Source: Candidatus Micrarchaeota archaeon (lineage in GTDB: Archaea > Micrarchaeota > Micrarchaeia > Anstonellales > Bilamarchaeaceae). Taken from it: a stretch of 64,000 bases of DNA. The notes under the pieces were generated by a model. That model did not search any database. It was not told the origin of the DNA and saw only the letters and a program-made list of their open reading frames with translations. The stretch lies in NCBI GenBank assembly GCA_040754495.1, contig JBFMCO010000022.1, positions 1 through 64,000 of the forward strand, written 5' to 3'. Position 1 is the stretch's first letter. Every line of letters begins with the position of its first letter. The position numbers and the translations under genes are program-made. Positions 19,849-42,339 of the stretch are shown here, in pieces.

Positions 19849-20178
19849 ATGGCGAAGGAAAAAATCGACTGGTCACAGCCCCCCAACCCGTCACTGCCGT
19901 TTATCAGCCCGGAGAACATAGGCGAGGTCGAGAAGGAGGCGCTGGCGATGGCCAACAAGGCTATTTCTCTCCTTGAGCAGGCGATAGCAGCCTGGGACAA
20001 CGCTAAGGACAAGCCGCCTGAGCTGAAAGGGACGATTCAGAGGTACAGGCGGTTCCACGAGGCGCTGAGCGACTGGGAGAAAAGGATGCTGCAGTCCCTG
20101 GGGAAGGCGGATTTCAATGCCCGGGTGAGGATGCTCGAGGAGTTCGTGAGGATAAGCAGGGCATACGAGGGTAACTGA
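19849..20178 (+). CDS. Small helical-hairpin hypothetical protein
   Basis: 109 aa amphipathic helices; its TGA overlaps the ATG of the giant ORF (TGATG). Confidence 0.7.
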   Translation: MAKEKIDWSQPPNPSLPFISPENIGEVEKEALAMANKAISLLEQAIAAWDNAKDKPPELKGTIQRYRRFHEALSDWEKRMLQSLGKADFNARVRMLEEFVRISRAYEGN

Positions 20179-26100: not shown

Positions 26101-29100
26101 TGCTGAAATTAGCCGCAAGGGGGAGGGGGGAGGACCCGTACAAGTATACGTACGGGTGGGCCAAGCAGCAGATGGAGAACGACCAGGACGTCAACCTTGG
26201 CAATCCGGCGAGGCCGGACTATGTGAAAGACCCCCAGCAGAGCTGGGCTTACTATAATTACAGCCCCATCACCGAGTACGGCGCCGACTTCATGGGCTAC
26301 GAGGAGCTTGGAGGGCGGCTATGGAACTCGGTCCTTGAGGGAGATGGCAGGAAAGTCCAAAGATACCAGAAGCAGATGCTGGTGATGGAAGCCTCGGTTT
26401 TCTATATCCCGGTAGATACCTTCATAGACGGGATAAACTCCAAGATTACATACAAGGACTGGCAAAAGAGGATACACTTCCAAGCCATGTATAACGGCGA
26501 CCTCGCGTATGATGAGCTGTTTGGCGACTGGGGGCTCATGGACGCGAGGACCGGGGCCAAAATCGCAGAAGGCGTCGGGATGTTTGCGCTCTCCATCGCC
26601 ACGATGGGCCTCGGGAGCGTTGGTTTCGTCGTGGGCGGGGGGAAGATGCTATGGGATGCCATAGACGGGATACAGAAGGACCTCGCCAAGTACGGCGAGG
26701 TAACCACCATGTCCTGGGTCAACCTCGGCCTCACGGTCGTGGGACTCGGAGCGAGCGCAGCAGCAGGCAGGCTGGTGAAGGCGTCCCAGACGGCGATTGA
26801 AGCCGCAAAGCTTGGCGATGCTGCTAAATTCACCACGCAGGTGGCGCGCGCCGGGAGGTTCGCGACCGCGGCGAGGGTCGTCGCCTACACCGATATAACC
26901 GTCAACGTAATCGGCATGGTGCCGCAGTTCTATTACGGAATCAAGCTCATGGCGGAAGGGAAATACGCCGAAGGCACGCAACAGCTCGCTTTCGGCGCAT
27001 TCTCGGCCTTCATGGCGTACCATGGCGGTGTGCAGCAGCTACGCGGCATGAGGGGCCTGAAGACGGAAATCGCGAAGATGGGGGCGCTGAGAGAGGCGCA
27101 TGCCAAGGCCCCAGAGGTCTTTGCAAGCCTCTCTACTCCGGAGGGGATGTTCTCGTTCCTGCAGCGCGTCCGGGCGAGGGACCCGGTCTCGCTCGTCATC
27201 TATGACAACCTGCCGAAGCCCCAGCGCATACTTTTCGACGGGATGCTCGCTGACCGGAACGTCGTTTCCGCGCTCAAGAAAAACGATATCGGCTTGGCTA
27301 GGGGCGCCTTCGACAGCGGGCTCGAAACATTTAAGCAGCTATCCGACCTTGGCGGAACAAGGGCGCTCACGGACGCGGCGCATCTTGGCACGCAGGCCGG
27401 CCTCGAGCCGTTCATGAGAGACCTCCTGATACCTGAAAGCGCGACCGGCCCGCAGCGCACGCGGAGGGACGCGGCGTATGCGAGGCTGGGGGAGATGAAG
27501 AAGCGGCCCGAGACCGCAGAGGCCGCGGCCACCATAGAGACGCTGCTCAAGGACAAGGACGTGCAGAAAGGGAACGAAACAGGGGTTCTGAAGATAGGGT
27601 GGGCTGCCGACGAGATACGGAGCCAGCAGATGCAGACGATTAACAGATATACCGATTCAGTCGTGAGCGGCGAGCAGGCCCGCCTCGGATTATATTCGAG
27701 CGAAGGCGAAGCCGCGCGCGCGAACGCGAAAAGGATAGGGGATTCCTACCTTGCATATGCCAGGGCGAGGAGCGAGGGGAAGCCGTTCGACTGGGATTAT
27801 CACGCAAAACGGATGGGCATGGGGCCGGAGGATGCCAAAAAGCTGTTTGCGAAGCTGGATGCCGTGCCGGACGCGAGGACGGTAGCGGGAGTGATATCCA
27901 GGGAGGGCGTCCGCCAGGCAGTCCGGAATAGGGTGGCCCTTGACGGGCGCGCGATACTCGGGGACACGCCGCTTACCGAGCTCGCCGGCGAAGGGGCGCT
28001 GTTCTCAAGGTGGGGCGAACTCACCCCTGAAGACCTTTTCGGCATGGCGCTAAACAGGAGGGAGAGGGCTGCAGAGGAACTCGAAGGGGCGGGCAGGGAA
28101 ACGGATGGGAGGCTGGCCGCGGCAAAGAGGGAACGGGCGACCGCCCTCTCGCGCGAGGCCGATGCCCTAGATGCAGAGGTAAAAAGGCGGCAGGCGCCCG
28201 AGGAGGTATTGACGCCCGATTCACTCCGCAGCGGCGCAAAGGAGAAGTTCGGGCGGGCCCAGCGCCTGCGCAGCGAGGGAAGGGACGAGGAGGCATTCGC
28301 GCTTGAGAGCGAAGCGAGGCGGAGCATAGCGCTCGCGGCAGACCTGGAGAAGTTCGGCGAATACGGCATCGTCCGTGCGACCCCGGACGGGCAGTTCATA
28401 CACAGGGATTTCCCTGACAGGAGATTCACAAGGGCGGAGCTGGATGACGCTGCCATACTCGTGAGGGCCATCAGGAAGAGGGGCGTCCCGACCGACAAGC
28501 GCCTTCTGGCCATATACGACGCGCTGCCGAAAGAGGTCAAGAAGGATTACCGGGGCGGCGAGGACGCCCTGATGAAGTCCGTGCTCGATGTAATCTATTC
28601 ACGGAGGGGGCAGGCGGCCGAGGCGGCGGCTCCGGTGCTCCGCTCCGAGGAGCTGCCGGTCCCCTCAGACCCGGCCCTTGCCGCAGTGGCCGGCATGACG
28701 GTGCCCGGGACGAACCTCAGGTGGGGAGTGATACCTCCGGACCAGGTGCTTCAGTGGCAGGCGAAGGTCTATGAGGCTTACAAGGCCGCGTACGGGAAAA
28801 TCGGCCTCATCTACGACAGCCCGGAGGCGATGTTCGCGAAGAACCCAGAAGTCCTGGTCGCGACGGACGGCGAGGGGAGGATTGTCGCATTCACGATTCT
28901 GAAAAAGACCGCTTTCGGGACGAAGCTGTCCCTTGTCGGGGCGGTGCCTGACATCCCCGAGGGAAGGGCTGCCGCAAGGGCAATGATACAGGGCTTTCCA
29001 GCTCTCGAGGGTGCCTATATCACGGCACCGGGTGCTCCTGCGCATCTTGCAATCAAGGCCGGAGTGCCGGTCGTCCCTTACGATTCGGCAAGAATCATCC

Positions 29101-32100
29101 AGGGCGAGGTTCCGGCCGAGGCCGGAAGCCCGGGCGCGTACCAGAACGGGGAGGGGAAGTGGGTCCGCCAGGAGGCGCAGCGCGGGGACGGTCCTGAAGG
29201 CATGGCTGCCATTAGCAGGATGCCAGGGTTCGCGGACTCGGAGCTCGTGAAGCACGCCATAGCGCAGGACGGGGTGAAGCCCGGCGCGAAGCCCGAGGAG
29301 CTCACCTGGAACGACTTGGTTGAGCAGGCGGTGAAGATGGGCGAGCTTCCGGACAGGCCGGAAGTCAGGCAGAACGCGTTCGCGGTGCCTATGGTGATAA
29401 ACGGGAAGCCCGAAATCGTGGTCAAGGTCATGTTCGGCAAGCCGCCGGCAGACGCGCTCGAGGTGCGCTCGGTCCTGCAATCAAGGGGAATTGGCGGGCA
29501 GGTAGCCGCGGATGCAATAAACCTTTACAAGATTTTCAATGGCGAGCAGGTGCCGCTCGAAGTCGCATCAAGATACATGGACGTCACGCTGCATGACCAG
29601 TACACGCGCATAAAGCAGGAGAAGATTGCCTCTGGGATGCCAGAGACGAAAGCCGATGCCGAGGCCCTCGTGGAGGTAGCCAAAAGCATGGCGCCCCGCG
29701 CCGGAGAGGGCGGGTTGGAAGCGGGCGGCCCGATATCTCAGGAGGGGGTGGAGCTCCTCAGGATGGCCGAGGGGAAGCTCGACCTCGTGGAGGGGCTGAC
29801 CGGGGCGGATGTCGCGAAGGCGACACTGGACTGGAGCCAGCCCAGGCTGGAGATGCTCAGGATTCTTACTGTTGAGGGAAGCCCGTACCGGGAGCGGTTC
29901 CTCGCAGCGGACCCGGCCGAGCGCGCGGTCATCGCGGACGCGATTGCAAGGGGCGCGACACCGGAGCGCGCGTTCCTCAAGGCGGCCGAGGGCATGGTGC
30001 CTGCGGATGGCCGAAAACTGCTTGAGGTGGGAGAGCGGCTGAAGGGGCTTCCCGAAGCAGAGAGGAATCTCAGGTTAAGAGACCTTGAATCGCTGAATCC
30101 GGCCCTCGGAAGGATGCTTAAGAGGCTGGCGGACCCTGCGACTCCGGAAACTGTGAAACAGGAGATTGCGGCCGAATGGGATTCGGCTGTTGCGGGCGCA
30201 GAGAGGCATAAGCGGGTCAATGAGGCGAGAGCGGCGCGGGACGCTGCGCAGCTTGCTGAGCAGGAGCTCGCCCTGCTGAAAGGGACGCCGGACGAGCAGG
30301 CCGCAGGACGCGTGCCGGCATGGATAGAGTCGGCCGCGAAGGCAAGGGGAAAGGACCCCGCGGCGCTCCATGAGGCGCTCGTGAAGGCATACGGAGAAGG
30401 CGGAACCGAAGGCAGGCTCAGGGTGCTTAACGAGCTGGGCGCGCTCGGCGGGATGCCTGAGGGGGTGCGCTCCACCTTCGTGCAGAACAGCCCGGAGTTC
30501 TTCGAGCTCATAGTGCGGGGCGGCCTTGAAGGCCGCGTGGCGGCGATGCCTGGATTCGAGGGCGGGATCATAGTCAATGCGGAGAAGCTCGAGGGGCTTC
30601 GCGGGGCGTACAAAATCGACGTGGAGATGCCGGACGGGTCAAAGCGCTCGCTGTTCGTGAAGGCCGAAGACCTGGTGCCGGCGCAGCTTGGAAGCGAGCT
30701 TGCCGGGGGGCATGGGCTTCTTCCGCCCGTGATACACGCGGCCGACGGACAGGGCATGCCCTTCACCTATGATACGGGGATAAGATACACGGACCCCGTC
30801 TCAGGGCAGGAGACGGCGCACATGCAGGAGTTCGGCATAATGGAGGACGTCCATGATTATGCGACAGCCAGGCACAGCGACGTCATCATGCTTCCGGACG
30901 GCAGGAGCGCGCAGGTTACCGTGGAGAGCGTGGCGGTCGTCTCCAGGGAGGTGTTCGCGGACCCGGCGAGGATGCAGGCGATACTAGCGGACGAGCATCA
31001 TCCCGCGCACAAGGTTGTCAAGGCGTTCTGGGAGCTTGCAAAAACAGAGGAGGGAAGGCAAAGGATTTTCCAGGCATGGCGGGCCTATCACGAGCTCTCG
31101 AGGAGGGCCATGCTCCTCGACCGGTTCGACAGGAACACGGTGGCAGTGCTCGTCACCACCCCGGAGGGAGAAAGCGTCCTCACGTTCCAGCCCATCGACA
31201 TGGACTATGTGGCGGGAAAGATAGGCTCGGACGGCGACCTTCGGTTCTTCAATGACGACTTCGCGTCAGCGAGCGTGGATTTTGCTACGAAGATTGCGGG
31301 GGCTGCGGGGGTTCCCGCAGAGACCGTCCTGGGAGAGATGGCGAAGGCGTACGGCTCTGACAGTGTGTTCCCGCGCGAAGCCGCGGACGAGAGGGCGGCC
31401 GCAGCGGCCTCGGTGCGCGCCACGCTGAACAAATACGACGGCAAGCCTTTCGGGGCCGGCTACGACGTCGAGGACTACGGCAAGACGATTGGAAAGGATT
31501 ACGTCGAATACGGCGGCAGGGACAGGATAGTCGGCCGGAGGGACGGCCGCGCGATTCTGCACGCCGGCGACATCACCCCGCTCGGCGAGCGGATAGGCGG
31601 GGCCGAGGCTGAGGCCGATTTCAGCAGGTTCAATCGGGAGAAGTTCGAGAGGATGGCAAAGCCGCTCGAAGAAGCGGCTCCGCCTCCGGCAGTGGAAGCG
31701 CAGCCGCCCGCCGGAGAGAAGACTCCGCCCGGAAAGCGCGGTGCCGGCAACGTAACGCCGCCGGCAAGGCCGGGTGCGATGCGGGGCGCGCCTGCAGGCG
31801 GGCCGAGAACCGTGCCGGGCAAACGGGGGGCCGGAGGCGGGGAGCCGGTTGCAGCGCCGGGCGGAAGGAGGAAGGTGGCAATCGGAGGCGGGGAGGTGGA
31901 GCTCGAGCCTGCGCCGGAAAGGGCTCCGGAGCTCGCCGCGATGAAGATAAGCGAGGACGAGCTTTCGCAGCTCGGCGTCTCATACCAGGGCCTTTATCAG
32001 GACGGCGCAGGGAGGAGGCTGAACGTATTCGAAACGGAGGCCGGGGGGGAGAGGAGGCTTGTCGCCATCCCGGCAGACCTCAGCGGGAAGGCGATGCTCG

Positions 32101-35100
32101 ATGCAATCGGGGCCGAGGTGCGCGCCCTGGGAAGGCCGACGGAACTGCCGCCGGAGCTGCGCGGCATGCCGCCGGACGTTTCGTCCCAGGTCGGGATGGA
32201 CGGGGCGCCAAAGGCAAGGCTGCTCTCGTCCGAGCCCCTGGGGCGCGGCTCGAGCGCGGACGTGTATCTTGCGGAAATGGTGATTGACGGAAGGCCGACC
32301 CGCGTCGCGGTGAAGATATACAAGAACCCGGAGGGAAACGGGACGTGGCAGGAGCGGGCAGAATATTTCGCGGACGAGGTGAGGAAAGCGAAGATCCTGG
32401 GCGATGCAGGCCTCGGCCCGAAGGTGTTCGGGATTGCCGATGCGGGCGGGAACATGGCTTTCGCGATGGAGGTCATCGAAGGCAAGCCGATGTACATAGA
32501 CGAGATGGCGCCCGGGCTCCGCGCGAAATACATCAATGAGGACACGTTCGCGCAGGTCCGGAAAATGTATGACGAGCTGATAGCCCACGGATACGAAATC
32601 GGCGATTTCGATTTCATGATATTGACCGAAGGGCCGAATGCCGGCAGGGTTGTGTTCCTGGACGCCGGGGCGCTGCGGGAGGTGCCGCGCGGCGCCCAGG
32701 GCGAGCCACGGCCAAGGTACGGCGACGGCGCGAAGAGGGCGGAGGGCGGGAGGCTTCAGGCTGAGGCCATGACCGCCATGGAATATTTCACGAAGATGGA
32801 CCGCGACGAGCTTGCCGCGGTAGCCGAGGTCTCGAAGGGCCTGCTCGGACAGGGCCATGTGGATTCGGACACCATGCGCCTGCTTGCGGTAAGATGGGGG
32901 AGCCGCGAGGGAAGGGCCAGGGCGATAGGAGAGTATATCACCAGTATCGCAGGGGCCGATGAGCAGAAGGCAAAGGCCACGTTCGACGCGCTGAAACGCA
33001 TCGAGGCGGAAACCGGCATACGGCTGCTGCCGGATGGCGCGAGGTTCGAGGACCTTGCAGCCAGGGCGGGGGAGGGCGAGATATCGGAGGCGGAAATCAT
33101 CGCGCCGATGTCAGGGGACGATTACCATGCCGCGCTCGCAGGGATGCGCACGCAGGCAGCACGCGAAAGCGTAGCGCTCCACTTCAGCGGAAGGGGCGAA
33201 ATCCCGGACGCGGCCACCTTCGAAAATGCTGCCATACTGGCCGATGAGGCGGCAGGCGCGAAGGTGCCGGAGCAGGGCCAGGCCGAGCTGTCCGTATATT
33301 ATGATGGGAACGGCAGGATAATCGGCATAGCGGATAACGAGCGGCTCTTCTACGGCGACCCCAAGGCGATAAATGACAAGACGCCGGAGGCGAAGGTCAG
33401 GGTGGACCTGGAGAGCGGCAGGATAGTCTCCATGGACGAGCGCGGCATGAAGAACCCGCTCCTTGCGGACCTGGTAGGGCTGAGGATACTTCCGGGCAAG
33501 GGAGCGGAGGGCGCAGGGCCCGGCGGAAGGGGCCCGCCACCGTTGCCCCCGATGAAAGTGCTTGACGAAGGCAGCATAGTTTCGGCTTATGCAAGCGGGA
33601 CAGGGCAGGCGCAGAGGACGAGGGCCGCCCGGTCGTTCGTGATGCTCGATGGCGAGGGGCAGGGGAGGGTGATATCGGAGCTGCGCTCCCAGGGCCGCCA
33701 TGAAGAGGCCAGGCATCTTACCGAGCTGCAGGCGATAGGTGGGGAAGCCGGCGCAGGCATCGAAAGGGTTTACGGAATCCCGAGGGACGAGATTATCACG
33801 ATATACGCGCGGGAGCCGACAGCCCAGGGCGCGAGGAAGGCGCTCGCGGAGAGGCTCGGCATCGTCATCCTGCCTTTCGAATGGGAGCATTATCCTGCGG
33901 ACAGGAGGCAGTGGGTGTCCGTCCCGTACCGGGATTTCAGGTCTTTCGAGGACGACCACTTCCTCTTCGGGCTCATTACCTCAGGGAACATGATTGACAC
34001 GGTCTCGCAGATGTATCCGGGAGGGAGGATAGCCTCCATAGAATACCATAACGGGGCGATAGGCGCTTACGAGGTCGCCATCAGGACGCAAAACGGGGAG
34101 ACGCGCACCGTTTTCGTGAAGAGGCAGGATTTGCGCCCGGATGCGGCCGGCTCGGACTACTCGGTCCGCTCAGGCGTCCCGGCTCCTGAGGTCATCACCA
34201 GCGCCGGAGGCAGGGAGCTTACTTACGTCGGCCCGGACGGGGAGGTCTCGCGCTACGGCATTATAACCAACATGAGGGATTTCGGGGGGATGATGAGGTT
34301 CGGGGGAGTCGAGGCGCAGGTCAGGGCTACGGACGAGACCGCGCTGTGGGACCTCGACAGGAGCCCCCTTGCCGGCTCGCTCATGTCTCAGGACCCGCAG
34401 GTGAGGGCGAAATTCTGGGAGGAGCTCGGCTACATGCTGGCAGGCTCTTACGCGACCGGGATATGGGACAGGCATGCGGGAAACGCGCGCGCGATGGTCC
34501 TCGAGGTGCAGAACGCGGACGCGCACACGAACCCCGCGGACCAATCATCACCGACAGTGGGCGAGGCGCTGTCGCAGAAGGGCTACTGGGTGTGGCAGCA
34601 GGACGGAAAGACGTACATGTTCATGATAGGCGGCATAGACACCGACACCGCGGCCAACTACCTTGCCGGCGAGGCGCACGGCAGCTTCGACATGACCGGC
34701 ATGAACATAAGGTACGGCTATGTCGACCTCCACAGCCTCTTTAACAGGCTAGCGACGATAAGAGGCACGAGCGTGGATGCGCTCGTCATGGAAGCCTTCG
34801 GCGATGTCAGCGGCGGTCAGGTGCCCGGCCCGGTCGCGATGGGCATGAAGAGGTGGTGGCGCGACTTCGGGAGCGACCCGCACTATGCCGATGAGATGGC
34901 CGGCCGGTTCTCCAGCCACGAAGGCGAGAGCATAGGCTTCGGATACCCCAGGACCGAGCAGGAGCTGGACGTGATAAGGCAGGGGGGCGTGCTCCATCAG
35001 GAGAATCCGCAGAACGGCGACCCTTACACCATCATCGCCTTCGCTGACGGCAGGTCTCGGATGAGGCCGGAATACGAGATAGTGCACCGTGAGGACATCG

Positions 35101-38100
35101 AAGCCCTCGACCCGCGCATAGCCGCGATGTTCCCTCCAGGGAGGGACATGTACGCCGTGGAGATAACCGGCGAGGTGCGGAAGGCCGTTCCGGACATAGA
35201 CAAGAGGACGAACCGCATCCGGACCTCGGACGGCAGGATGGTCGCGATAATAGACTCGGCCGACCCGCTCGCGAAAACGCTGCTCGACGGGGGAATTCCT
35301 ATGGTGAAGGCGAGGCGCGACATGCCCCGGCAGGGAGAAGTTGCCGTGGATGATGCGACCGGCATAATACGGGCCGCTCCAGGGTTCGGAAAGCTGACCG
35401 GAATCCAGGCCTACCAGGCCGGCCCGGTTCCGGTTTTCCGGGCGATGATGGGGGCAGGGGAGGGGTTCATGCTCGGGCAGTTCGCGCACATCGGCCATTA
35501 TATATTGGCCAAGGAAACGAGCGTGAGGGAAGCCGCGCAGGTTCCTGCCGGAGTGGTGGCCGGGGAGATAGAAGCGCCGGGAATAGAGCGCATGCCCGCC
35601 CCGGCGCAGGTGGAAGGGGTAAGGGGCGGGATGAGGGACCTGGTAGGGGCAGTCAGGTCCGGAGACGAGGGCAGGATAAGGGCCGCGGAAGCCGAGTACG
35701 ATAAGAGGCTCGGAGTGCTGGCCAGGCTAAGGCCAGATACGGAACTGAGGGTCGTGGAAAACGAGACGCTGTTCGCGGACCTGGCTCCAGGGGGGCAGGC
35801 ACAAGCGAAGGTGCTCGCGGCAGACTATCTCAGGAACAGGTCCGCAGGAAAGAAGCTTGACGGCGACCTGCTCGTCATCGACTACCTCGTATCGCATGGA
35901 ATGAACGCGGTGGATGCGGCTGCGGCAGTCGTGAATCTGGGGGGCGCCGGGAAGGCGCCTGCCCCTGTGACGCTTCCGCCGTACGTTGCCGAGCACTTCG
36001 GGACCAGGCAGCCTGACCCGGTCACGGCTGAAAACGCGCTGATTCTTGCCGGGGACAGGAATACGCTCGGAAGATTGGGCATACCGGACGGCCTTGGCAG
36101 GGTCCTGAAAAGCGAGGGCATGGCTGTCGTGTCCGAAGGAAAGAGGATGACCGAGGTGAGAGGCTATTACGATCTGGAGAGCGGCAGGATAATATACCTC
36201 GGCAGGACGGACGCGCCAAGGGAGGTCACGGCGGGAGGAGTGGAGTTCGTCCTCCGTTTCGACCATGAGAGCGGGAGGGTATCCATTCCGGAAAGCGAGG
36301 ACGTGCCGCTTCCGGATTCGATTGCCAGGCTGAACGGAATGCGCATTGCGCCCCCGCCCCAGGCAGTGCCGTTTGGCGTTTTCGGCATTTTCATGCCACT
36401 GTTCAAGTATTTCAGGAAGCCCCCGGCAGCCGCCCCGCAACCTGAGGCCGTGCCCATCAAGGTCCCGAGGTCCAGGAACGACATCCAGGGAAGGGCCGAG
36501 GGCATAAGGGGGCTGCCCCCGGACCAGCAGGCGCAGGAGCTTGCGGGGCTGCACGATGCCGTGGCCGCCGAGCATGGCGACGTTTATGCGAGGAATTACC
36601 GCGACATGATGGAGGAGCTGGTGAAGCATCCGGAGCATTCGGGCAGGATTCTCGACGAGTGGGAGGCGGTGAGGGCCGAGGAGAAGCATTACGAGGCGCT
36701 CGAGAGGGCGAGGAGGTATGCCTTCTCGGCCGCAGAGGGGTTCGGGATTGTCAGGGGGCAGGACAGGAAGCTCATATCAGGCGGAGAGTACGCGGCGGAC
36801 ATGGCACGCTCGAGGGGCGAGAAGCCCAAGGCATTCCGGAAACGGCTCCTCGAAGCGTATGATGCCGGGTTCAGGAGAGGAGGCGTGCTCGATGCGAGGC
36901 TCGGCGTGGCAAATTCGCTGGGTGTGCTCGACAATATAGTGGTAGAGTCGCGGCCGGGCGTCTTGGACGAAAAGAGGACGATGCAGGCGAGGAAGGAATT
37001 CATCAGGAAGAACCCGGAGTTCTTCGACCTAATCATGAGGGGCGGACTCGAGGAGGTCATCTCCGCGAACCTCGGGGCCGGCGACGTGAGAATCGCAGGA
37101 GTCTCGCACGCGGGCGGCATGGCGCGGGGCGCGTACGGCGTGGAGGTCCTCCTTCCGGACGGCAGGAGGAAGCGCGTGTTCGTGAAGCTGGAGGACCTCG
37201 GGCCTGCCGCGTTCGGGGCTGATTTGGCCAGAGTCGAGGGCATGATTGCGCCGAAAGTCTTCACTGCGGATTCGCAGGGAAGGCCGCTCTCGTATGACGT
37301 GAGCTACAAGGACCCCATCGGAAAGAGGATGGTGAGCGGCCAGAGGCGCTTTGGCATCATGCTGGATGTCCGCGACACGGTAGGGCAGAAGGCCAGGGTG
37401 AGGACCGCGGACGGGAGGTTCAGGGAGATAACGGTCACGAGCGTGGCGCTCGTTGGCGACGACATCTTCAATGCCAGGTCGCTTGACGGGATACCCCAGC
37501 CCTCCAGGGCCGCCGCGGAGGACTTCTGGACCGCAATGGGAAGCGAGGGCGGGCGCGAGGAGATGTTCAGGACGTGGTACGCGTACCAGGAGATGTCAAG
37601 GCGGGCCACCCTCAGCGACAGGCACACCGGGAATTCGATGTACGTCATCGGCGTGACGTCGGATGGCGAGACCGTGAGGACGTTCCAGCCCATAGACCCG
37701 GACGATATCGGAGCCAAGGTCGAGGCCAGGCCGGAGGGCATGAACTTCAGCGAGTTCAACGATTTTTCCGCGCTCTACACGTCGAATTTCGTGAACGGCC
37801 TGTACCTCGCGTCGGATAACGCCGCGAGCCTCGGCCTGCTCAAATCCCCGATCAACCGCGCGCAAGCGAGCAGGGCAGCATCGAGCGACGCCGCGATGTC
37901 AGGGTGGAGGCTTCCGGAAGACCCCGGGTGGGTGAGGTCCGCGGCTGAGTTCATAATCATGGATTACGATGGCAAGCCGTTCGGCCTCGGAACGGACATG
38001 ACGATAGGCGGGCACGGCTCGTACATAAAATACCATGCCGGCAGGAGGAGGGCGGCAGGCTACGACGGCCGCGTCCGGATGTACTCGGACGAGATGCTGG

Positions 38101-40703
38101 CGGTTTATCGGGGAGCGCAGGACCCTGCCAACGCGGCGGATGTCGCGCGCAGGGTGGATGAGCGGATGGGCTGGGAGAACGCCGGCCACATGAGGGCGCT
38201 TGAGCGGAGGTATCCGGACCTCGGCACCCTGCCTCCGCACATGCAGGAGTACAGGGAGCCCCTCGAGCGTGCGCGCAGGCGCATAGCGGGCGGCGAGAAG
38301 CCCGATGACGTTTACCTTGACGAGTCGAAGAGGATGCTGAGGGCTAATCCCCGGGAGAGGGCGAAGGCCGAGGACATAATCACGAGGCACGGGAGGGGCG
38401 TGGCAGACGCCGAGGTGTCCGCGGTCCTGGAGTTCCAGAAGAGAAACGGCATCGCGTCTTTCGAAGATGCGGCGTATGCATTCGTGAGACAGCAGGCCGC
38501 GCCGAAACCTCCAGCGGAACCGCTGCAGCCATCCGAAGCCATTTACCGGAAGCATGAAGCGAATATTTTCGGCCCTGCCCGGGGGCAGCTTGGCAGCGAG
38601 CTCCTTGCCAGCCTGAGGGGCGCTGAGGAGAGGATAGCCGGCATGGTGCCTGAGGGGCCGGAGAGGGAGCGCGCGCTCAAAAGATGGGGCGAGTTTGCAG
38701 ACCGGGCGCTCTCGCGCATCGCCGATCTCCCGGCACCCGAGCGCGCGGACGCGCTGGCGCGCTTCATGATAGCGGGCGACTATCTCCTCACAAGGGCGGC
38801 TGAGAACCCGGCGCGCACGAAGGCATGGCTCGATTTCATCGCCGACAACCCGAACGCCGTCGAATACGCCATGCTCGCCAAACGAGGTCTCGACATAAGG
38901 GCGCAGGACATAGTCGTGGCCGAAATCCGCCCCAGCATCCATGACATGTCTGACAGGAAAGCGCTGAAGAAGGCCCTCGGGAAGAGGGTATCGTTCATGG
39001 AGGACGTGATACGCGAGATACCGGAAAGGTGGTTCATGGAGGCGGGGGTGAGGCGCGATTATATGATGGACCTTGCAGGTTCCGACCCGCTCAGGGCGGC
39101 GGCCGAGCTCGACCGCGTCACGATGCCGCACGGAATCAGTGTTGTGAGGAAGGCAACGGGCGTGTACCTCGCAGAGGTCTCGCACACGTTCTCGCTGCAT
39201 GGCCAGCCGGACATCCGGGGCCTCGTAATAACCGGCGCTTACGGGACGGGCGACATGTTCGACGGCATGACCGCGTATTTCAATCCCCTCAGCGGCAGGA
39301 TTTTCATGCGCGGGACTGCCCATTTCGCGGAGGCCGGCATACCGGAATCCGCGCTTCCGGGCATGAAGATGACGTACGTGCATGAGATGCAGCACCTGCT
39401 CGACAACGCCGGCGGGTATGTCGCGGCACTCTCGGCCAGGTCTGCAGGGCGCGGAATGGCCTTCATGCCGGAATACCGCGCCAGGCTCGAGACCACGGCG
39501 GTCGCGAGAGAGGTCCTGGAGATGGTTCCCCGGCTGGGGGGCCGCGGGACCGAGGATGCCATCAACGCAGCCATCAGGAAGGACCCGGAGGAATACAAGC
39601 AGGCTTACAGGAAGGCGCTGGACGCCATGCGCACAGGCGAGGACGGAAGGCCCGACCCGGACTGGGCGGGCAGGCCGCCCGAGGTTCTGCAGAACCGGCT
39701 GAGGAAGCTTATAGACGACGAATACCGGAGCCTTATGCCGCTGAGCTATACCGAGCTCTACGGGCCGACAACCGCAGGGATCGTCCGCGGGGAGATCACG
39801 GTCAGGAAGCCGGCCGCCCCCGAGGCCGTTCCCTTCAAGCCCGCCGTAGCCGCGGACTCGGCTCCGGGACGCGGGGAGCCGGACCTGCTGCGCTCTGCCA
39901 AGTATGAAAATGGAATCCTGACGATAGAGGCGGATTACCTGGGAGGCGAGCTTGCACATGCGGTGAAGCCGCAATTCGCCGAATCCGCGGTGAATGGCGA
40001 GTTCATCCCTTCCGGCGACAGGACAAAGCCGAGCGGCCTGTGGCTCTCGTGGGGCTCCGGCTGGGATTACTTCACAGGGAGCAACCCCGGCCTGATGTTC
40101 AAAGGCACCGTGAAGTTCAGGGCCGAGATGAGGTCCGGATTGAAGCTCTTCCTGCTTGACGGGCGCGAATCTTTCGATAGCATGATGGCCGAATTCCGGC
40201 GGGAAGTTAAGGTCGCCGAGACAACGGGGAGCGGGTATCCGGATGGCACCTGGCCTGATAACAACTGGGTGTACTACGAGAAGAGCCCATGGCAGTGGCT
40301 TAGGGAAAGGGGCTATGACGGCGTGGCCGTGACGGAGGAGGGATATCTGGATACCAATTTCCAGTTCGGCTGGGACGCGGCCTCCATAGTCATTTTCGAG
40401 CCTGCGGGCAATGTGCGCCTGCCTGGAGGCGAAGCCAGGCTGGAGGAGTACAGGAAGGGTGCCCAGGGCAGCGCGGACGCCATGCTGCCCCTTATTGAAG
40501 AGGCAGGCCTGCCGTTATTCGGCCCGAATAAGGCGTATGACCTCATAGAGGCGTACGCCGGCGGCAGGGCTGAGCGCAGCCCGGGAAAGCGCATCGATGC
40601 CGAGGATGAGGCTTTCCTTAAAAAGCTCCTGGACGAGAAACCGGGCCTTGAAGAGGCTGCGAAAAGGATTATCGAATACGTTAGAAAGAGGGAAGGGGGA
40701 TAG
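20178..40703 (+). CDS. Giant 6,841-aa multidomain effector-like protein
   Basis: Uninterrupted 20.5-kb ORF with recognisable kinase (DRHAGN, DRHTGN, GRGSSADVY/VAVK), HEMQH, GNAT-like and ART-like motifs and a TM block. Confidence 0.93.
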   Translation: MGQKPAERQPEVRDEGVRVAQPQVPMVPREQPRGGANEAAANAATGLGVMGKFAAVLDFIIADPSRAEGRLAEFSRRLEPYRADYPEETRIALGLFGAASRMYREAQDARAHGDTQRAQELEDSARAHFREGMAKAGSVPGMAQDIHSLAGAGASPEWIESRKAAFNDVGLGTWNRAIAIDQAVEWRVKNDAIIDAGGPAAREAEARMRDEAVRLAEGSRQGQAFSEQDYQDTMRRFSEASAPVTALAAHIHGAAALFHQAAMRQGVSEQYTKAMEDLKKEFDKLLKKLEEGTATKEDVEKAKELADAVKAAETDLEGLSGDDAVTVSGIHARGLSALRQGKGEMARVQRQLAREYAKTKDPGMRKKLERWSADLAKGKAPEAELERWLEAQRPAEFRALTTENIKRETAERAGLLREKGYERSHPRETKRIAELDREAAKALEEAKALRKRGDLDGAGKLEAKAFRLLREARAKVLWLERLDRFQARLAGIKEPPEMKKAAEEVSKALGGAFNFIGTQDGWRARLAFIAADVFIRYGKVLQSKPAAPLLKGILSIVGILSDPRKKVDEKRAQEEVGRLEPKALSAELGGLKGKVDDKAHSKLTDAVKAASGFIGTNQQWRAAYLLRGVKFFLDNREKIGTRGKLFEGIMGFLGRLADPKGEIGEEEAKREFARITGIPAEAPAQAGGRREAALTVAGLKQAGEGFEKRLRAIPGHEEQVRSITETVKLAGEEFRAGNVKKAQELLALAEKKAAALEGVVEREKRIDASGAPEEAREKLKKAGLAAFNDLGKQSGGRFDTVVKATDLFLGGMERKLWLQPGGETAALKLLDFIGRLGEGALQGLEFDSQAAESELSDISAQAGELWKAMLGASITEWLRLIEGWRTMGGLGTANAKFLDDLAESYRALQKRLEEGAKAEDIEQEASALEARAEHAKKIGEELEERERAVAVFRGDVEDFKADTAAFRASERFKKYAADAEPYVKKAEEWEEKAATFMAEAEKLEGDAKAEMIKRAADAVKRSEELLGHAGKIIGLREAGASDEVVSAYRKAANSYIAVFEPAPPGLAGEAQIFPDDVLAYAAIVFSAADSYLFFRKHGRAEAEKRAERLVLGTTFASRIADAEAELRGLDGEMEYAEAIDSDTAARKQKLMDSATELRGDKRKVPKPREGSAEWYGQMALDALERGDFAVADLAVYRGMFEKVAPGGGRNYVPEDIERDISAVLRGEKVPAAGELDRYLTLIDSASLTAQADLLKRDNPVSGSAEERERKQRVHKLAEEIKRRADAHDFAGAERLLEMATVYTGLARDKKWKAFAGADRMEAALDAELAGGDHSGEFQAAVVYQKASEETASFRASLADWGAGLAENKKLVERGLLRVEQLVSEGKTEEAGALFGQLMLYAGAVRTFAAPKKRDVIPGFDPAYDSSKLGGMGLALDALIKGEAEVGGKKPEEVFSQSFLETQREYLNKRADAYLRLSEKMPVGAETVGQGLAEVRRRAAEGDFEGALRLLEMAGNYYGEAAPGKQAGWRYRDATRKGPGYERGRQDMLNAISMEIAAKDPADHDEALETFNSGSQRISVAKAAIERYEIVERNIYNALPTAVIDEWDHHGTIALRGEPTPENEEGPVLGRVSMEKIRRYESEHPDDTALGGGLSLKTLLTKMKKAAEEGDDEAFRKYEKAFFSRLYLVAGRILRREQLEENRQEVKKYIEVLEGFTAAITIDQLVPYGWLEGDDERLKKVTALEKQLKNNEISKAEFESKLNVILSERLQMIEQNKFTDKVPGPMRETVRQLAPRAKALLERARGLYGKLEKMDNNSSEFPLEEYKQVVKDLSALTEEYQTQRKISVAYSHIDQQLQMNKSYHEAIAGEGALASDYPDAYGRAVKFLGFSNGHFKKAQELLLKGEFKQAGAEFERGINRREWALMEADPNVLFGQANTYLGNLPISMLTGVPIIPESTTAMDEVSMIKHRPGWGVLKLAARGRGEDPYKYTYGWAKQQMENDQDVNLGNPARPDYVKDPQQSWAYYNYSPITEYGADFMGYEELGGRLWNSVLEGDGRKVQRYQKQMLVMEASVFYIPVDTFIDGINSKITYKDWQKRIHFQAMYNGDLAYDELFGDWGLMDARTGAKIAEGVGMFALSIATMGLGSVGFVVGGGKMLWDAIDGIQKDLAKYGEVTTMSWVNLGLTVVGLGASAAAGRLVKASQTAIEAAKLGDAAKFTTQVARAGRFATAARVVAYTDITVNVIGMVPQFYYGIKLMAEGKYAEGTQQLAFGAFSAFMAYHGGVQQLRGMRGLKTEIAKMGALREAHAKAPEVFASLSTPEGMFSFLQRVRARDPVSLVIYDNLPKPQRILFDGMLADRNVVSALKKNDIGLARGAFDSGLETFKQLSDLGGTRALTDAAHLGTQAGLEPFMRDLLIPESATGPQRTRRDAAYARLGEMKKRPETAEAAATIETLLKDKDVQKGNETGVLKIGWAADEIRSQQMQTINRYTDSVVSGEQARLGLYSSEGEAARANAKRIGDSYLAYARARSEGKPFDWDYHAKRMGMGPEDAKKLFAKLDAVPDARTVAGVISREGVRQAVRNRVALDGRAILGDTPLTELAGEGALFSRWGELTPEDLFGMALNRRERAAEELEGAGRETDGRLAAAKRERATALSREADALDAEVKRRQAPEEVLTPDSLRSGAKEKFGRAQRLRSEGRDEEAFALESEARRSIALAADLEKFGEYGIVRATPDGQFIHRDFPDRRFTRAELDDAAILVRAIRKRGVPTDKRLLAIYDALPKEVKKDYRGGEDALMKSVLDVIYSRRGQAAEAAAPVLRSEELPVPSDPALAAVAGMTVPGTNLRWGVIPPDQVLQWQAKVYEAYKAAYGKIGLIYDSPEAMFAKNPEVLVATDGEGRIVAFTILKKTAFGTKLSLVGAVPDIPEGRAAARAMIQGFPALEGAYITAPGAPAHLAIKAGVPVVPYDSARIIQGEVPAEAGSPGAYQNGEGKWVRQEAQRGDGPEGMAAISRMPGFADSELVKHAIAQDGVKPGAKPEELTWNDLVEQAVKMGELPDRPEVRQNAFAVPMVINGKPEIVVKVMFGKPPADALEVRSVLQSRGIGGQVAADAINLYKIFNGEQVPLEVASRYMDVTLHDQYTRIKQEKIASGMPETKADAEALVEVAKSMAPRAGEGGLEAGGPISQEGVELLRMAEGKLDLVEGLTGADVAKATLDWSQPRLEMLRILTVEGSPYRERFLAADPAERAVIADAIARGATPERAFLKAAEGMVPADGRKLLEVGERLKGLPEAERNLRLRDLESLNPALGRMLKRLADPATPETVKQEIAAEWDSAVAGAERHKRVNEARAARDAAQLAEQELALLKGTPDEQAAGRVPAWIESAAKARGKDPAALHEALVKAYGEGGTEGRLRVLNELGALGGMPEGVRSTFVQNSPEFFELIVRGGLEGRVAAMPGFEGGIIVNAEKLEGLRGAYKIDVEMPDGSKRSLFVKAEDLVPAQLGSELAGGHGLLPPVIHAADGQGMPFTYDTGIRYTDPVSGQETAHMQEFGIMEDVHDYATARHSDVIMLPDGRSAQVTVESVAVVSREVFADPARMQAILADEHHPAHKVVKAFWELAKTEEGRQRIFQAWRAYHELSRRAMLLDRFDRNTVAVLVTTPEGESVLTFQPIDMDYVAGKIGSDGDLRFFNDDFASASVDFATKIAGAAGVPAETVLGEMAKAYGSDSVFPREAADERAAAAASVRATLNKYDGKPFGAGYDVEDYGKTIGKDYVEYGGRDRIVGRRDGRAILHAGDITPLGERIGGAEAEADFSRFNREKFERMAKPLEEAAPPPAVEAQPPAGEKTPPGKRGAGNVTPPARPGAMRGAPAGGPRTVPGKRGAGGGEPVAAPGGRRKVAIGGGEVELEPAPERAPELAAMKISEDELSQLGVSYQGLYQDGAGRRLNVFETEAGGERRLVAIPADLSGKAMLDAIGAEVRALGRPTELPPELRGMPPDVSSQVGMDGAPKARLLSSEPLGRGSSADVYLAEMVIDGRPTRVAVKIYKNPEGNGTWQERAEYFADEVRKAKILGDAGLGPKVFGIADAGGNMAFAMEVIEGKPMYIDEMAPGLRAKYINEDTFAQVRKMYDELIAHGYEIGDFDFMILTEGPNAGRVVFLDAGALREVPRGAQGEPRPRYGDGAKRAEGGRLQAEAMTAMEYFTKMDRDELAAVAEVSKGLLGQGHVDSDTMRLLAVRWGSREGRARAIGEYITSIAGADEQKAKATFDALKRIEAETGIRLLPDGARFEDLAARAGEGEISEAEIIAPMSGDDYHAALAGMRTQAARESVALHFSGRGEIPDAATFENAAILADEAAGAKVPEQGQAELSVYYDGNGRIIGIADNERLFYGDPKAINDKTPEAKVRVDLESGRIVSMDERGMKNPLLADLVGLRILPGKGAEGAGPGGRGPPPLPPMKVLDEGSIVSAYASGTGQAQRTRAARSFVMLDGEGQGRVISELRSQGRHEEARHLTELQAIGGEAGAGIERVYGIPRDEIITIYAREPTAQGARKALAERLGIVILPFEWEHYPADRRQWVSVPYRDFRSFEDDHFLFGLITSGNMIDTVSQMYPGGRIASIEYHNGAIGAYEVAIRTQNGETRTVFVKRQDLRPDAAGSDYSVRSGVPAPEVITSAGGRELTYVGPDGEVSRYGIITNMRDFGGMMRFGGVEAQVRATDETALWDLDRSPLAGSLMSQDPQVRAKFWEELGYMLAGSYATGIWDRHAGNARAMVLEVQNADAHTNPADQSSPTVGEALSQKGYWVWQQDGKTYMFMIGGIDTDTAANYLAGEAHGSFDMTGMNIRYGYVDLHSLFNRLATIRGTSVDALVMEAFGDVSGGQVPGPVAMGMKRWWRDFGSDPHYADEMAGRFSSHEGESIGFGYPRTEQELDVIRQGGVLHQENPQNGDPYTIIAFADGRSRMRPEYEIVHREDIEALDPRIAAMFPPGRDMYAVEITGEVRKAVPDIDKRTNRIRTSDGRMVAIIDSADPLAKTLLDGGIPMVKARRDMPRQGEVAVDDATGIIRAAPGFGKLTGIQAYQAGPVPVFRAMMGAGEGFMLGQFAHIGHYILAKETSVREAAQVPAGVVAGEIEAPGIERMPAPAQVEGVRGGMRDLVGAVRSGDEGRIRAAEAEYDKRLGVLARLRPDTELRVVENETLFADLAPGGQAQAKVLAADYLRNRSAGKKLDGDLLVIDYLVSHGMNAVDAAAAVVNLGGAGKAPAPVTLPPYVAEHFGTRQPDPVTAENALILAGDRNTLGRLGIPDGLGRVLKSEGMAVVSEGKRMTEVRGYYDLESGRIIYLGRTDAPREVTAGGVEFVLRFDHESGRVSIPESEDVPLPDSIARLNGMRIAPPPQAVPFGVFGIFMPLFKYFRKPPAAAPQPEAVPIKVPRSRNDIQGRAEGIRGLPPDQQAQELAGLHDAVAAEHGDVYARNYRDMMEELVKHPEHSGRILDEWEAVRAEEKHYEALERARRYAFSAAEGFGIVRGQDRKLISGGEYAADMARSRGEKPKAFRKRLLEAYDAGFRRGGVLDARLGVANSLGVLDNIVVESRPGVLDEKRTMQARKEFIRKNPEFFDLIMRGGLEEVISANLGAGDVRIAGVSHAGGMARGAYGVEVLLPDGRRKRVFVKLEDLGPAAFGADLARVEGMIAPKVFTADSQGRPLSYDVSYKDPIGKRMVSGQRRFGIMLDVRDTVGQKARVRTADGRFREITVTSVALVGDDIFNARSLDGIPQPSRAAAEDFWTAMGSEGGREEMFRTWYAYQEMSRRATLSDRHTGNSMYVIGVTSDGETVRTFQPIDPDDIGAKVEARPEGMNFSEFNDFSALYTSNFVNGLYLASDNAASLGLLKSPINRAQASRAASSDAAMSGWRLPEDPGWVRSAAEFIIMDYDGKPFGLGTDMTIGGHGSYIKYHAGRRRAAGYDGRVRMYSDEMLAVYRGAQDPANAADVARRVDERMGWENAGHMRALERRYPDLGTLPPHMQEYREPLERARRRIAGGEKPDDVYLDESKRMLRANPRERAKAEDIITRHGRGVADAEVSAVLEFQKRNGIASFEDAAYAFVRQQAAPKPPAEPLQPSEAIYRKHEANIFGPARGQLGSELLASLRGAEERIAGMVPEGPERERALKRWGEFADRALSRIADLPAPERADALARFMIAGDYLLTRAAENPARTKAWLDFIADNPNAVEYAMLAKRGLDIRAQDIVVAEIRPSIHDMSDRKALKKALGKRVSFMEDVIREIPERWFMEAGVRRDYMMDLAGSDPLRAAAELDRVTMPHGISVVRKATGVYLAEVSHTFSLHGQPDIRGLVITGAYGTGDMFDGMTAYFNPLSGRIFMRGTAHFAEAGIPESALPGMKMTYVHEMQHLLDNAGGYVAALSARSAGRGMAFMPEYRARLETTAVAREVLEMVPRLGGRGTEDAINAAIRKDPEEYKQAYRKALDAMRTGEDGRPDPDWAGRPPEVLQNRLRKLIDDEYRSLMPLSYTELYGPTTAGIVRGEITVRKPAAPEAVPFKPAVAADSAPGRGEPDLLRSAKYENGILTIEADYLGGELAHAVKPQFAESAVNGEFIPSGDRTKPSGLWLSWGSGWDYFTGSNPGLMFKGTVKFRAEMRSGLKLFLLDGRESFDSMMAEFRREVKVAETTGSGYPDGTWPDNNWVYYEKSPWQWLRERGYDGVAVTEEGYLDTNFQFGWDAASIVIFEPAGNVRLPGGEARLEEYRKGAQGSADAMLPLIEEAGLPLFGPNKAYDLIEAYAGGRAERSPGKRIDAEDEAFLKKLLDEKPGLEEAAKRIIEYVRKREGG

Positions 40704-40721: not shown

Positions 40722-41264
40722 TCAGGGCACGGCCTGCCCGTTTATCACGAAGCTGAATTTCTGCCTCTCCTTCTCAAGCGCCTTCACGGTTTCCAGAGAG
40801 TCCTTCAGCATGCGCAGGAAAGGCTCCCAGGAGCCGCTGCCGGAATGGATGCTGCGGATGGCCTCGGAAACGACGACCTTCCTTTTCTTGTCCACGAAAG
40901 TGCAGTAGATGCTGCTTCCCCGGCGCCTGACATCGATGCCGTATTCCGCGAAATCCTCCTCCGGCGGAAGTGTGGCGCCGAGCGCGAGCGCGGATGCGAC
41001 GGATTCTATCCCCTTCCTCGGCTCGGACGAATAGGACTGGACGCCGACGCCGTCCTTGAGATAAAGGCTGTCCGGAATCCTGAGGAGCGGCTCCAGCTCC
41101 CGGGGCATCCCGCCGGCGATTTCCGCGAGGGTGTCCATGAGGCGCTCTTTAGTTGCGCGGTCCCGCAGGAGCGGATCTGCCAGCATCTTCTGGAACCTTT
41201 TTTCGCCTATGTCCGTTACGGTTGCTCCGGCCGTTTTCTTTTTTCTCTTTCCTGCCATCGTCAC
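40722..41264 (-). CDS. Hypothetical protein, paralog family A
   Basis: LLRIPDSLY...YGIDVRRRGSSIYCTFVDKKRKVVV...GSW shared with 42365-42895. Confidence 0.75.
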   Translation of the reverse strand: MTMAGKRKKKTAGATVTDIGEKRFQKMLADPLLRDRATKERLMDTLAEIAGGMPRELEPLLRIPDSLYLKDGVGVQSYSSEPRKGIESVASALALGATLPPEEDFAEYGIDVRRRGSSIYCTFVDKKRKVVVSEAIRSIHSGSGSWEPFLRMLKDSLETVKALEKERQKFSFVINGQAVP

Positions 41265-41809
41265 ACCAGGTACATGTCGCCGCAGTCGCTGACCGCTACT
41301 CTCCCCGGCTTCGCCTTCGCGGCTGCCTCGGCGGCCCTTATCGCGCCAGCGACTTCCGCCCAGTCCTTTTTTTGCGGCTTGTCCATATAGCGCATGAGCG
41401 GCTCCCTCACCATTATCCTCCGGCCCATGTCCGCGAGCACGAGATAGACTGTGCTTGTCGTCTCATAGACGGCGATGCCGTATCCCATGTCGGGCTTCCG
41501 GTCCATATGGCCGGATGAAAGGAAACGCGCCAGGACAGCGTTTATCCCGAACCCGGCGTCATCCGAAAGCGTGATTGCATTACCGGCCTCGCGCCGGTAA
41601 AGGCGCGCGGGGAGCGCAAGCGCCGCCTTGACATCCTCGCTCCAGTTCTGCGCGTATCCTGCAAGGCCCGAAGCGGCGTCCTCCCGCGACACGGAGGCAG
41701 GTGGCGCAGCTTCTGCAAGATGGCCTTCAGTGGCGCCGGCCTTCGCGATGAACGGCTTTTCCGGCGGAGGCAGGGGCACTGGACCGCGGGCATCCCTTTT
41801 CTTTGGCAT
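41261..41809 (-). CDS. Hypothetical protein, paralog family A
   Basis: LALPARLY...YGIAVYE..STVYLVLADMGRRIMV; 4-nt overlap with the next gene. Confidence 0.7.
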   Translation of the reverse strand: MPKKRDARGPVPLPPPEKPFIAKAGATEGHLAEAAPPASVSREDAASGLAGYAQNWSEDVKAALALPARLYRREAGNAITLSDDAGFGINAVLARFLSSGHMDRKPDMGYGIAVYETTSTVYLVLADMGRRIMVREPLMRYMDKPQKKDWAEVAGAIRAAEAAAKAKPGRVAVSDCGDMYLV

Positions 41810-41841: not shown

Positions 41842-42339
41842 CTAGGTCGCCTCGATGAGCCGCCAGTAGGTGTTGTTGTCGAGGATGTTCCTCGCCTTCG
41901 CGAGGTCGGCCGGGGGAATCTGCGCCCCCGTATCCAGCGCCTTCTTCACCGAGCGCAGGAATGCGAGGTCGGCCCGGGCGGCGGTTATGCAGCCCTGGAC
42001 GATGCGTTCTATCTTGCCCTTGGCTTCCTCCCGCGACGCCTCCCCGCTTTCCAAGGATACCTCGATTTTTGACGGGTCTGCCAGGCTCCTGAAAACCACG
42101 CCGGAGCCGCCAAGCTCGTCTTTCTTCCCTCCGGCCATGCCCCGGACGAAGCTCTCGACGCCCCTCCGGAGGACGCCTGCCCCGTTCTCCAGGTCCCGCT
42201 CGAGGTATTCGATTTTGCCATCAATCCCGCGGGCAAGGCCGGCCATCTCCAGGCCCTCGCCTTTTTCCGGGGCGGCGCCTCTTGACGGGAATTTTCCTGA
42301 ATCGCGCTTTTTCGGGAAGGGAATCACCTTTCTCTCCAT
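41842..42339 (-). CDS. Hypothetical coiled-coil protein
   Basis: 165-aa helical ORF within the same-strand cluster. Confidence 0.6.
   Translation of the reverse strand: MERKVIPFPKKRDSGKFPSRGAAPEKGEGLEMAGLARGIDGKIEYLERDLENGAGVLRRGVESFVRGMAGGKKDELGGSGVVFRSLADPSKIEVSLESGEASREEAKGKIERIVQGCITAARADLAFLRSVKKALDTGAQIPPADLAKARNILDNNTYWRLIEAT

Follow-up and report, generated by a model that had tools for sequence, protein, structure and literature searches.

What are the three mutually similar, kinase-like stretches in a 6841 amino acid (aa) protein of a Candidatus Micrarchaeota archaeon, and what might they do? The protein is encoded in the window analysed here, the 64,000 nucleotides (nt) from position 1 to 64,000 on the forward strand of contig JBFMCO010000022.1 (assembly GCA_040754495.1). 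Its gene is one uninterrupted open reading frame (ORF; 20178-40703, + strand), which carries all of the kinase-like modules described below. In DPANN archaea such giant genes account for several per cent of genomes that are themselves very small, and they are without annotation. The public relatives of this one are likewise recorded as 'hypothetical protein', without a Pfam domain. An initial annotation, made from the sequence alone, had described three tandem-duplicated PI3/PI4-kinase-like domains. We lean, with a little better than even confidence, towards the view that they are undescribed kinase-fold modules, predicted to be phosphotransferases, that are carried as cargo by a giant protein acting at host contact and that are each accompanied by a cognate partner protein.

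The three units lie in the same ORF and are homologous by both self-BLAST and hidden Markov model (HMM) analysis, as the initial annotation had proposed from their shared motifs. Unit 1, a type A module, spans 30450-31742 (+ strand; aa 3425-3855; HMM E 9e-123). Unit 2, a type B module, spans 33843-35357 (+ strand; aa 4556-5060; HMM E 1.5e-52, and 6e-200 with a type-B HMM), and unit 3, again of type A, spans 36957-38177 (+ strand; aa 5594-6000; HMM E 1.2e-118). The HMM used for all three was built from 49 units. FVK is found at 30654, 34113 and 37179, and the catalytic loops read DRFDRN at 31119, DRHAGN at 34467 and DRHTGN at 37617. QPID occurs at 31188 and 37686 with GGID at 34629, YDGKPFG at 31434 and 37965, and PEFF at 30492 and 37014. 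In residue numbers, the key positions are Lys3495, D3648-R-F-D-R-N3653 and D3674-x-D3676 in unit 1, Lys4648, D4764-R-H-A-G-N4769 and D4821-x-D4823 in unit 2, and Lys5670, D5814-R-H-T-G-N5819 and D5840-x-D5842 in unit 3. Units 1 and 3 both end in a YDGKPFG..DGR tail and unit 2 in HEGESIGFG..ADGR. Moreover, unit 2 contains an insert of about 31 residues between the catalytic loop and the IDxD motif. By self-BLAST, unit 1 (aa 3401-3799) and unit 3 (aa 5557-5973) share 34% identity (E 6e-54), and the N-lobe of unit 2 (aa 4596-4725) shares 31-36% identity with units 1 and 3 (E 2e-9 to 7e-11).

All three units contain the helical PEFF segment and the DGKPFG..DGR tail, with diverged versions of both in unit 2 (HFLFGLITSGNM in place of the PEFF segment). 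The shared tail had been recognised from the start, whereas the helical segment had been assigned to units 1 and 3 only. These two units do share a further stretch of about 100 aa upstream (aa 3330-3424 and 5491-5593), and their homology extends from it well into the modules (aa 3330-3593 versus 5491-5764, self-BLAST E 3e-37). This stretch lies at 30165-30449 (+ strand, about 95 aa) before unit 1 and at 36648-36956 (+ strand) before unit 3, and it is present in 10-19 other giants.

Units 1 and 3 belong to subtype A and unit 2 to subtype B, whose modules measure about 500-600 aa. A maximum-likelihood tree joins unit 1 to units of the foreign giants P0006 and P0009 (support 96) and unit 3 to P0005 (support 95), and unit 2 falls into a separate type-B clade (support 100). 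Therefore, the units are old paralogues that have been united in a mosaic protein. The term 'tandem-duplicated' does not describe them, given that units 1 and 3 are not sisters and unit 2 is of a separate old subtype. A recent tandem triplication was considered and rejected on the same tree.

Next to sequence, the fold can be judged from an AlphaFold2 model of unit 3 made with a 49-homologue alignment (predicted local distance difference test score, pLDDT, 93.5; predicted template modelling score 0.92). Its elements follow the canonical kinase order, beginning with three N-terminal helices that contain PEFFDLIMRGGLE. Strands 39-45 and 54-59 follow around the conserved G48 and G52, forming a glycine-rich turn between strands 1 and 2, and strand 65-71 ends at K71, the FVK lysine, ahead of helix 76-87. 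A helix at 191-210 leads to D215..N220, then come strands 221-227 and 233-239 and D241 of the I-D-x-D motif. The C-lobe is helical and a small hairpin bears the DGR motif. The best Foldseek matches were PI3Kgamma, VPS34 and ATM (E 1e-4, probability 0.99-1.0), with a global template modelling score of only about 0.25. VIA-align, run against 48,161 representatives plus the Foldseek top 1000, placed PI4KIIIbeta at Z 12.6 (root-mean-square deviation, rmsd, 5.1; 261 residues aligned), VPS34 at 12.4, CotH (5jda) at 12.2 (rmsd 5.4; 285 aligned of 359) and PI3Kgamma at 12.0. ATM and PI4KIIalpha scored 10.4, Bud32 about 10, actin-fragmin kinase 9.8 and CtkA 8.6, and aminoglycoside kinases, RIO, SelO and Fam20 about 8-9. 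An ESM Atlas shape search with unit 3 returned PI3_PI4_kinase and APH clusters. An ESM feature search gave HipA_2, PI3_PI4_kinase and LepB_N clusters at 0.91-0.93, which are leads only, as is the observation that 21% of the members of the HipA_2 cluster (score 0.93) carry HipA_2. Because the structure searches give kinase-fold proteins only, we regard a protein-kinase-like fold as established for the units at the superfamily level. Within the superfamily, the model would place them nearest to the atypical PI3K/PI4K/PIKK group, in a tie with CotH. The structural comparison suggested in the initial annotation thus recovered two of its proposed relatives, PI4KIIalpha (Z 10.4) and CotH (Z 12.2). 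The other two, LepB and HipA, were not among the 50 listed structural matches of unit 3, which does not exclude either.

With the PI3K/PI4K/PIKK group (PI4KIIIbeta 8q6g, VPS34 8rxr and 2x6f, PI3Kgamma, ATM, PI4KIIalpha 4pla) the modelled unit shares two lobes, N-terminal helices packed on the N-lobe, Z scores of 10.4-12.6 over 240-265 aligned residues, and D-R-x-x-x-N with, further on, a metal-binding Asp that has an Ile directly before it; type B even has the full D-R-H-x-x-N. However, identity in the structural alignments is about 10%, the units read I-D-x-D and not D-F-G, and they possess a family-specific C-terminal DGxxxG..DGR sub-domain. Moreover, they occur serially within archaeal proteins of 3,000-7,300 aa, each with a dedicated small partner gene. 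PF00454 gave no match at E<=1 on any of the 49 units (gathering score 27.1 bits), and the same was true of PF08757 (CotH), HipA and LepB_N (PF18640). The designation PI3/PI4-kinase-like therefore holds for the kinase fold and for the presence of PI3K and PI4K among the closest structures, but it is not backed by a significant PF00454 match and CotH ties with these enzymes. CotH of Bacillus cereus (5jda/5jd9; PF08757) could be aligned over more residues than any other match (276-285 of about 359, Z 12.2), and a further point of likeness is the adjacent gene, which for CotH encodes the substrate. It differs in being a single-domain spore-coat protein of about 360 aa from Firmicutes, the units have no Pfam match, and the partners described here are unrelated to CotG or CotB. 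The spacing of the catalytic and metal-binding Asp is also similar, D228 and D251 in CotH (PMC7821199) compared with D215 and D241 in unit 3.

The residues expected of an active kinase can be followed through the 49-unit alignment, which is almost entirely of type A. D215, R216, N220 and D241 (D5814, R5815, N5819 and D5840 in the giant) are invariant in 49/49 units, G48 and G52 are near-invariant, and the strand-3 lysine K71 is found in 40/46 units. The third position of the catalytic loop is F in 14 units, Y in 10, R in 9, H in 8, A in 4, K in 2, and N and Q in one each. Of DRHxxN, which had been cited as the type II PI4K/atypical kinase signature, only D, R and N are invariant in this mainly type-A alignment, with His in 8/49 units. 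In type B (14 units) the lysine, D-x-H-x-x-N, I-D-x-D and DGR are invariant, and the loop Arg is replaced by Gly in three. Unit 2 has Gln where type A keeps Glu, two residues past the lysine. All three units retain the elements that phosphotransfer would need, namely the glycine-rich loop, the FVK lysine, D-R-x-x-x-N and I-D-x-D. Unit 1 had been suspected of being a pseudokinase on account of its His to Phe change. Phe is the commonest state of the family at this position, and the Lys, Asp, Arg, Asn and Asp-x-Asp are all kept, so this suggestion was rejected on the family-wide residue counts. Unit 1 carries the commonest family state at every key position and nothing marks it as degenerate.

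A separate observation concerns the stand-alone relatives of about 800 aa, represented in this genome on contig 7 (L027:6046-8445), which form their own clade (support 100). These have Ser in place of the strand-3 Lys (YLSLQD versus VFVKxED) while D-R-x-x-x-N and the partner gene are kept.

Small partner genes are the second recurrent component of the system. Five small convergent genes follow the giant gene, and three of them, s1, s2 and s4, are paralogues. The first, s1 (40722-41264, - strand; 180 aa, isoelectric point (pI) 9.4), is of the alpha clade and lies tail-to-tail with the giant gene, 18 nt past its stop. The second, s2 (41261-41809, - strand; 182 aa), is of the beta clade, which co-occurs with type-B units, and s4 (42365-42895, - strand; 176 aa) is an alpha-clade paralogue of s1 with 35% identity. 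Elsewhere in the genome, relatives of s1, s2 and s4 are found only beside further kinase-bearing genes or at a contig start. A partner HMM identified genes tail-to-tail with a kinase-bearing ORF in 15/18 related loci, often with a gap of <=20 nt. The pI of the partners is basic (9.0-9.4) and that of the units acidic (5.0-6.2). The partners share the motifs L-x-(I/L)-P, (F/Y)-S-S-(D/E), P-(D/E)-Y-G-I, D-x-x-R and W, with a near-invariant Ser in (F/Y)-S-S-(D/E), and have basic N-terminal tails rich in Lys, Arg, Ser and Thr. The partners matched no family in Pfam, NCBIfam or PADLOC, and a profile search of the PDB gave no match. An ESM Atlas model of the partner fold was unreliable (pLDDT 0.42), making its shape neighbours meaningless.

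The partner tree divides into alpha and beta clades (support 96/92), with a median terminal branch of 1.03 changes per column. A beta partner is present in 11/11 loci that have a type-B unit and in 0/7 loci that have type-A units only. Within this genome the order of units A-B-A is matched by alpha-beta-alpha at the present locus, A-B by alpha-beta on contig 42, and a single A by alpha on contig 7. One contig-42 giant has two units and two partners plus one weak partner, and the other has two units and at least one partner before the contig ends. Directly behind the 6149-aa giant lies a convergent ORF of 485 aa (contig 42, 21889-23343), the C-terminal domain of which is weakly partner-like (E 6e-9). 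Partners occur in each of the 27 kinase-positive genomes, and a further ten, all of them fragmented assemblies, have partners only. These co-occurrence counts are descriptive and no statistical test was applied, because related genomes are not independent samples. The loci show that each subtype is tied genomically to its own partner clade, alpha to A and beta to B. A stand-alone kinase of 799 aa with one partner also exists without a giant carrier. As a side observation, three partner genes (alpha, beta, alpha) stand near the start of contig 65 (L029, 827-6255), a contig with no kinase unit; the giant gene that belongs with them is probably truncated by the end of this contig or located on another.

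The family is rare and, in the genomes searched, confined to one lineage. An exhaustive phmmer search with unit 3 retrieved 55 proteins among 1.84 billion representatives, most of them 3,000-7,300 aa long. In a phylum sample the module was found in 27/401 genomes, all of a single Micrarchaeota family (26/76 there, 0/~325 elsewhere), and it is patchy even within the genus of the window (17/28 genomes). The related loci all come from Candidatus Micrarchaeota or Micrarchaeia metagenome-assembled genomes (MAGs), one of them named Ca. Bilamarchaeum, in agreement with the earlier assignment to an archaeal protein. The genome itself (1.63 Mb, 80% complete) contains eight units: three in the giant, two in each of the contig-42 giants (6149 and 6659 aa) and one in the protein of about 800 aa on contig 7. 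Among the giants retrieved via the module, only the kinase modules and the immediate upstream stretch are widely common and the remainder is mosaic. No account of this family came to light in the searchable literature on kinase-carrying giant proteins of DPANN archaea or Micrarchaeota. What we regard as new is the family, the way its modules are set in series within DPANN giants, and the partner genes that match them by type; fold and chemistry belong to a known kind.

The carrier itself has unusual features. It contains no cysteine in 6841 residues, and its sister giants on contig 42 contain one and three; most other ORFs of >=1,500 aa in the genome are richer in Cys than these three, with up to 46. 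There is a single strongly hydrophobic segment (aa 2132-2154). Pfam, searched over the full giant, gave no family at E<=0.1 except four sub-threshold N-terminal matches.

From these data we propose the following mechanism. Each unit would bind Mg-ATP between its two lobes and transfer the gamma-phosphate to a substrate hydroxyl, and we weakly favour a protein over a lipid as substrate. The units would be cargo domains of a Cys-free mosaic giant that acts at or across the contact with a host cell, the giant itself being an exported or membrane-inserted multi-enzyme effector. In the producing cell the partner, which is of the alpha clade if the unit is of type A and of the beta clade if it is of type B, would bind its cognate unit and, in the manner of an immunity protein or a chaperone, keep it inactive or transport-competent. 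A stronger version of this proposal is an undescribed DPANN effector-immunity system, in which the Cys-free giant is put into the host, phosphorylation rewires or poisons the host, and the convergent genes encode inhibitors that silence the kinases. This we offer only tentatively, as a possibility that is more doubtful than probable.

Several results weigh against our proposal. At the level of sequence, neither Pfam (searched with the giant and the 49 units) nor NCBIfam or PADLOC gave a significant match to the units, and phmmer and profile searches of PDB sequences with units 1 and 2 and with types A and B recognised nothing. A Z score of about 12 fixes the superfamily of the model and singles out no clade. 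Moreover, we infer the clustering of conserved residues round a nucleotide pocket from the order of secondary-structure elements in the model. The Ser of the stand-alone relatives suggests that not every family member need be active. We identified neither a signal peptide nor any known machinery for secretion. In known polymorphic toxin systems the immunity gene is usually on the same strand as the toxin gene, whereas units and partners are convergent here, as they are in every locus examined. Lastly, partner numbers do not always follow the units: the locus L019 has two type-A units and one partner, and L021 has an A and a B unit and a beta partner only.

Other explanations must be weighed against the same data. 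The partner could be the substrate or an obligate co-factor of its unit, making kinase-substrate or kinase-activator pairs that serve a surface structure of the symbiont itself, with no attack on a host. Bacillus CotH, the structural match with the most residues aligned (Z 12.2, 285 residues), has CotG and CotB, both encoded by neighbouring genes, as its phosphorylation substrates. Phosphorylation of CotG by CotH is described together with a cotH promoter located just past the 3′ end of the adjacent cotG (PMC7821199). The near-invariant Ser of the partners and their basic Lys/Arg/Ser/Thr-rich tails would be in keeping with such a model, subtype-specific co-occurrence would suit substrates as well as inhibitors, and the stand-alone 799-aa kinase has one partner and no giant. 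However, a stand-alone form that lacks the strand-3 Lys fits this poorly, mosaic Cys-free carriers are more like exported effectors, and the fast evolution of the partners (1.03 changes per column) is typical of immunity proteins; we consider the explanation unlikely. A lower probability still attaches to the units being lipid kinases of PI3K/PI4K type whose phosphorylation substrates are inositol lipids (archaetidylinositol) in the membrane of the host, in the way of Legionella LepB or the type II/III PI4-kinases. In its favour, the best structural matches include PI4KIIIbeta, VPS34, PI3Kgamma and PI4KIIalpha, PI3_PI4_kinase and LepB_N clusters are feature neighbours at 0.91, D-R-x-x-x-N and I-D resemble the catalytic and metal-binding loops of PI-kinases, and the hydrophobic segment of the carrier is consistent with a membrane contact as the probable site of action. 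Yet the PF00454 and LepB_N profiles have no significant match on any of the 49 units, type A does not conserve the His of DRH, and protein kinases score equally or nearly so (CotH, Z 12.2; ATM and SMG1, Z 10-11; Bud32; actin-fragmin kinase). Moreover, a dedicated protein partner for each unit would be unexpected for a plain lipid kinase.

Some other chemistry, or none, is the least probable of the alternatives and we think it very unlikely. The units could carry out AMPylation with a flipped nucleotide, as SelO does, or phosphorylation-elimination, as the kinase domains of lanthipeptide synthetases do, or could be pseudokinase scaffolds, unit 1 at least. SelO (Z 8.7), CylM/LicM2 (Z 8.1-8.8) and NIS synthetases (Z 8.3-9.5) all appear in the structural list, but they score well under the PI-kinase and CotH group. 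The third catalytic-loop residue varies freely in type A and the strand-3 Lys is missing in some members of the family, whereas the four catalytic and metal-binding residues are invariant and the loop glycines nearly so, which would be unexpected for pseudokinases, and unit 1 has the commonest family state at all key positions.

Our preferred reading, that of kinase-fold cargo with cognate partners, finds partial parallels in known systems. Toxin kinases of HipA type (HipA_2, CtkA) combine a kinase-like toxin fold with a small, separately encoded protein that holds it in check, the role that we propose for the partners, and type-B D-x-H-x-x-N is a motif that we take to resemble the HipA catalytic loop. 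They differ in that neither a helix-turn-helix nor a relationship to HipS could be detected in the partners, and in that the genes here converge and do not form an operon. Polymorphic toxins and polyvalent giants with immunity arrays are alike in having a giant mosaic carrier with swappable enzymatic modules and small, fast-evolving genes at the 3′ end, whose numbers and types follow the modules in most loci. Unlike these, the system has convergent rather than co-directional partners, a kinase family that is new as cargo, and no recognised secretion or processing domain identified here. The SPEARE giant proteins of Nanohaloarchaeota are, we assume, similar as giant mosaic carriers of DPANN symbionts. 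To our knowledge, little is known of host manipulation by DPANN archaea. The model provides the first structural assignment for the one module common to these Micrarchaeota giants, and the family is a new atypical-kinase branch, situated in the superfamily close to PI3K/PI4K, CotH and HipA-like kinases, and a lineage-restricted addition to the kinase-fold catalogue. Three expressible domains of about 400-500 aa and three partners of about 180 aa would also offer a biochemical handle on the symbiont-host interface.

The remaining genes and segments of the locus are of secondary interest. The other two small convergent genes, s3 (41842-42339, - strand) and s5 (42936-43460, - strand), recur behind giants in other MAGs. 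A homologue of s3 (E 1e-19) is found behind the giant of L021, which has aa 2827-3087 in common with the giant described here, and a homologue of s5 (E 1e-14) follows the L020 giant; s3 and s5 may thus be partners of other modules. The shared segment (28656-29438, + strand) contains VATDGEGRIVAFTILKK and is common to a few other giants; by eye this module is acetyltransferase-like. Between units 1 and 2 lies a fourth kinase-like stretch, of RIO or eukaryotic-protein-kinase type (32145-33077, + strand; aa 3990-4300), which is unrelated to units 1-3 and is also present in four other giants. It has a glycine loop LGRGSSADVY, a lysine in VAVK and a later FLDAG, and its sequence matches are weak only (StkP and Rio1, E 0.1-0.4; PADLOC PD-T4-6, E 3e-5). 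Another kinase-like domain, which differs in type from those above (DSHAGN ... RIDFENAG), was seen at the C-terminus of the 6149-aa sister giant (L030:901-2217; contig 42, ~20590-21906). This domain gave the one match, not significant (12 bits, E 0.1), of a six-frame PF00454 search of the whole genome.

The giant-gene cassette has just upstream of it a gene for tRNA-Gly(CCC) (18693-18772) and an ORF with a LAGLIDADG domain (17894-18547; Pfam E 2.5e-6). The giant gene has a G+C content of about 0.64, higher than its flanks, and a purine skew that is strong relative to them. It is directly preceded by an ORF of 109 aa, predicted to be helical (19849-20178, + strand), whose end overlaps the ATG of the giant ORF by 1 nt, and this suggests translational coupling of the two.

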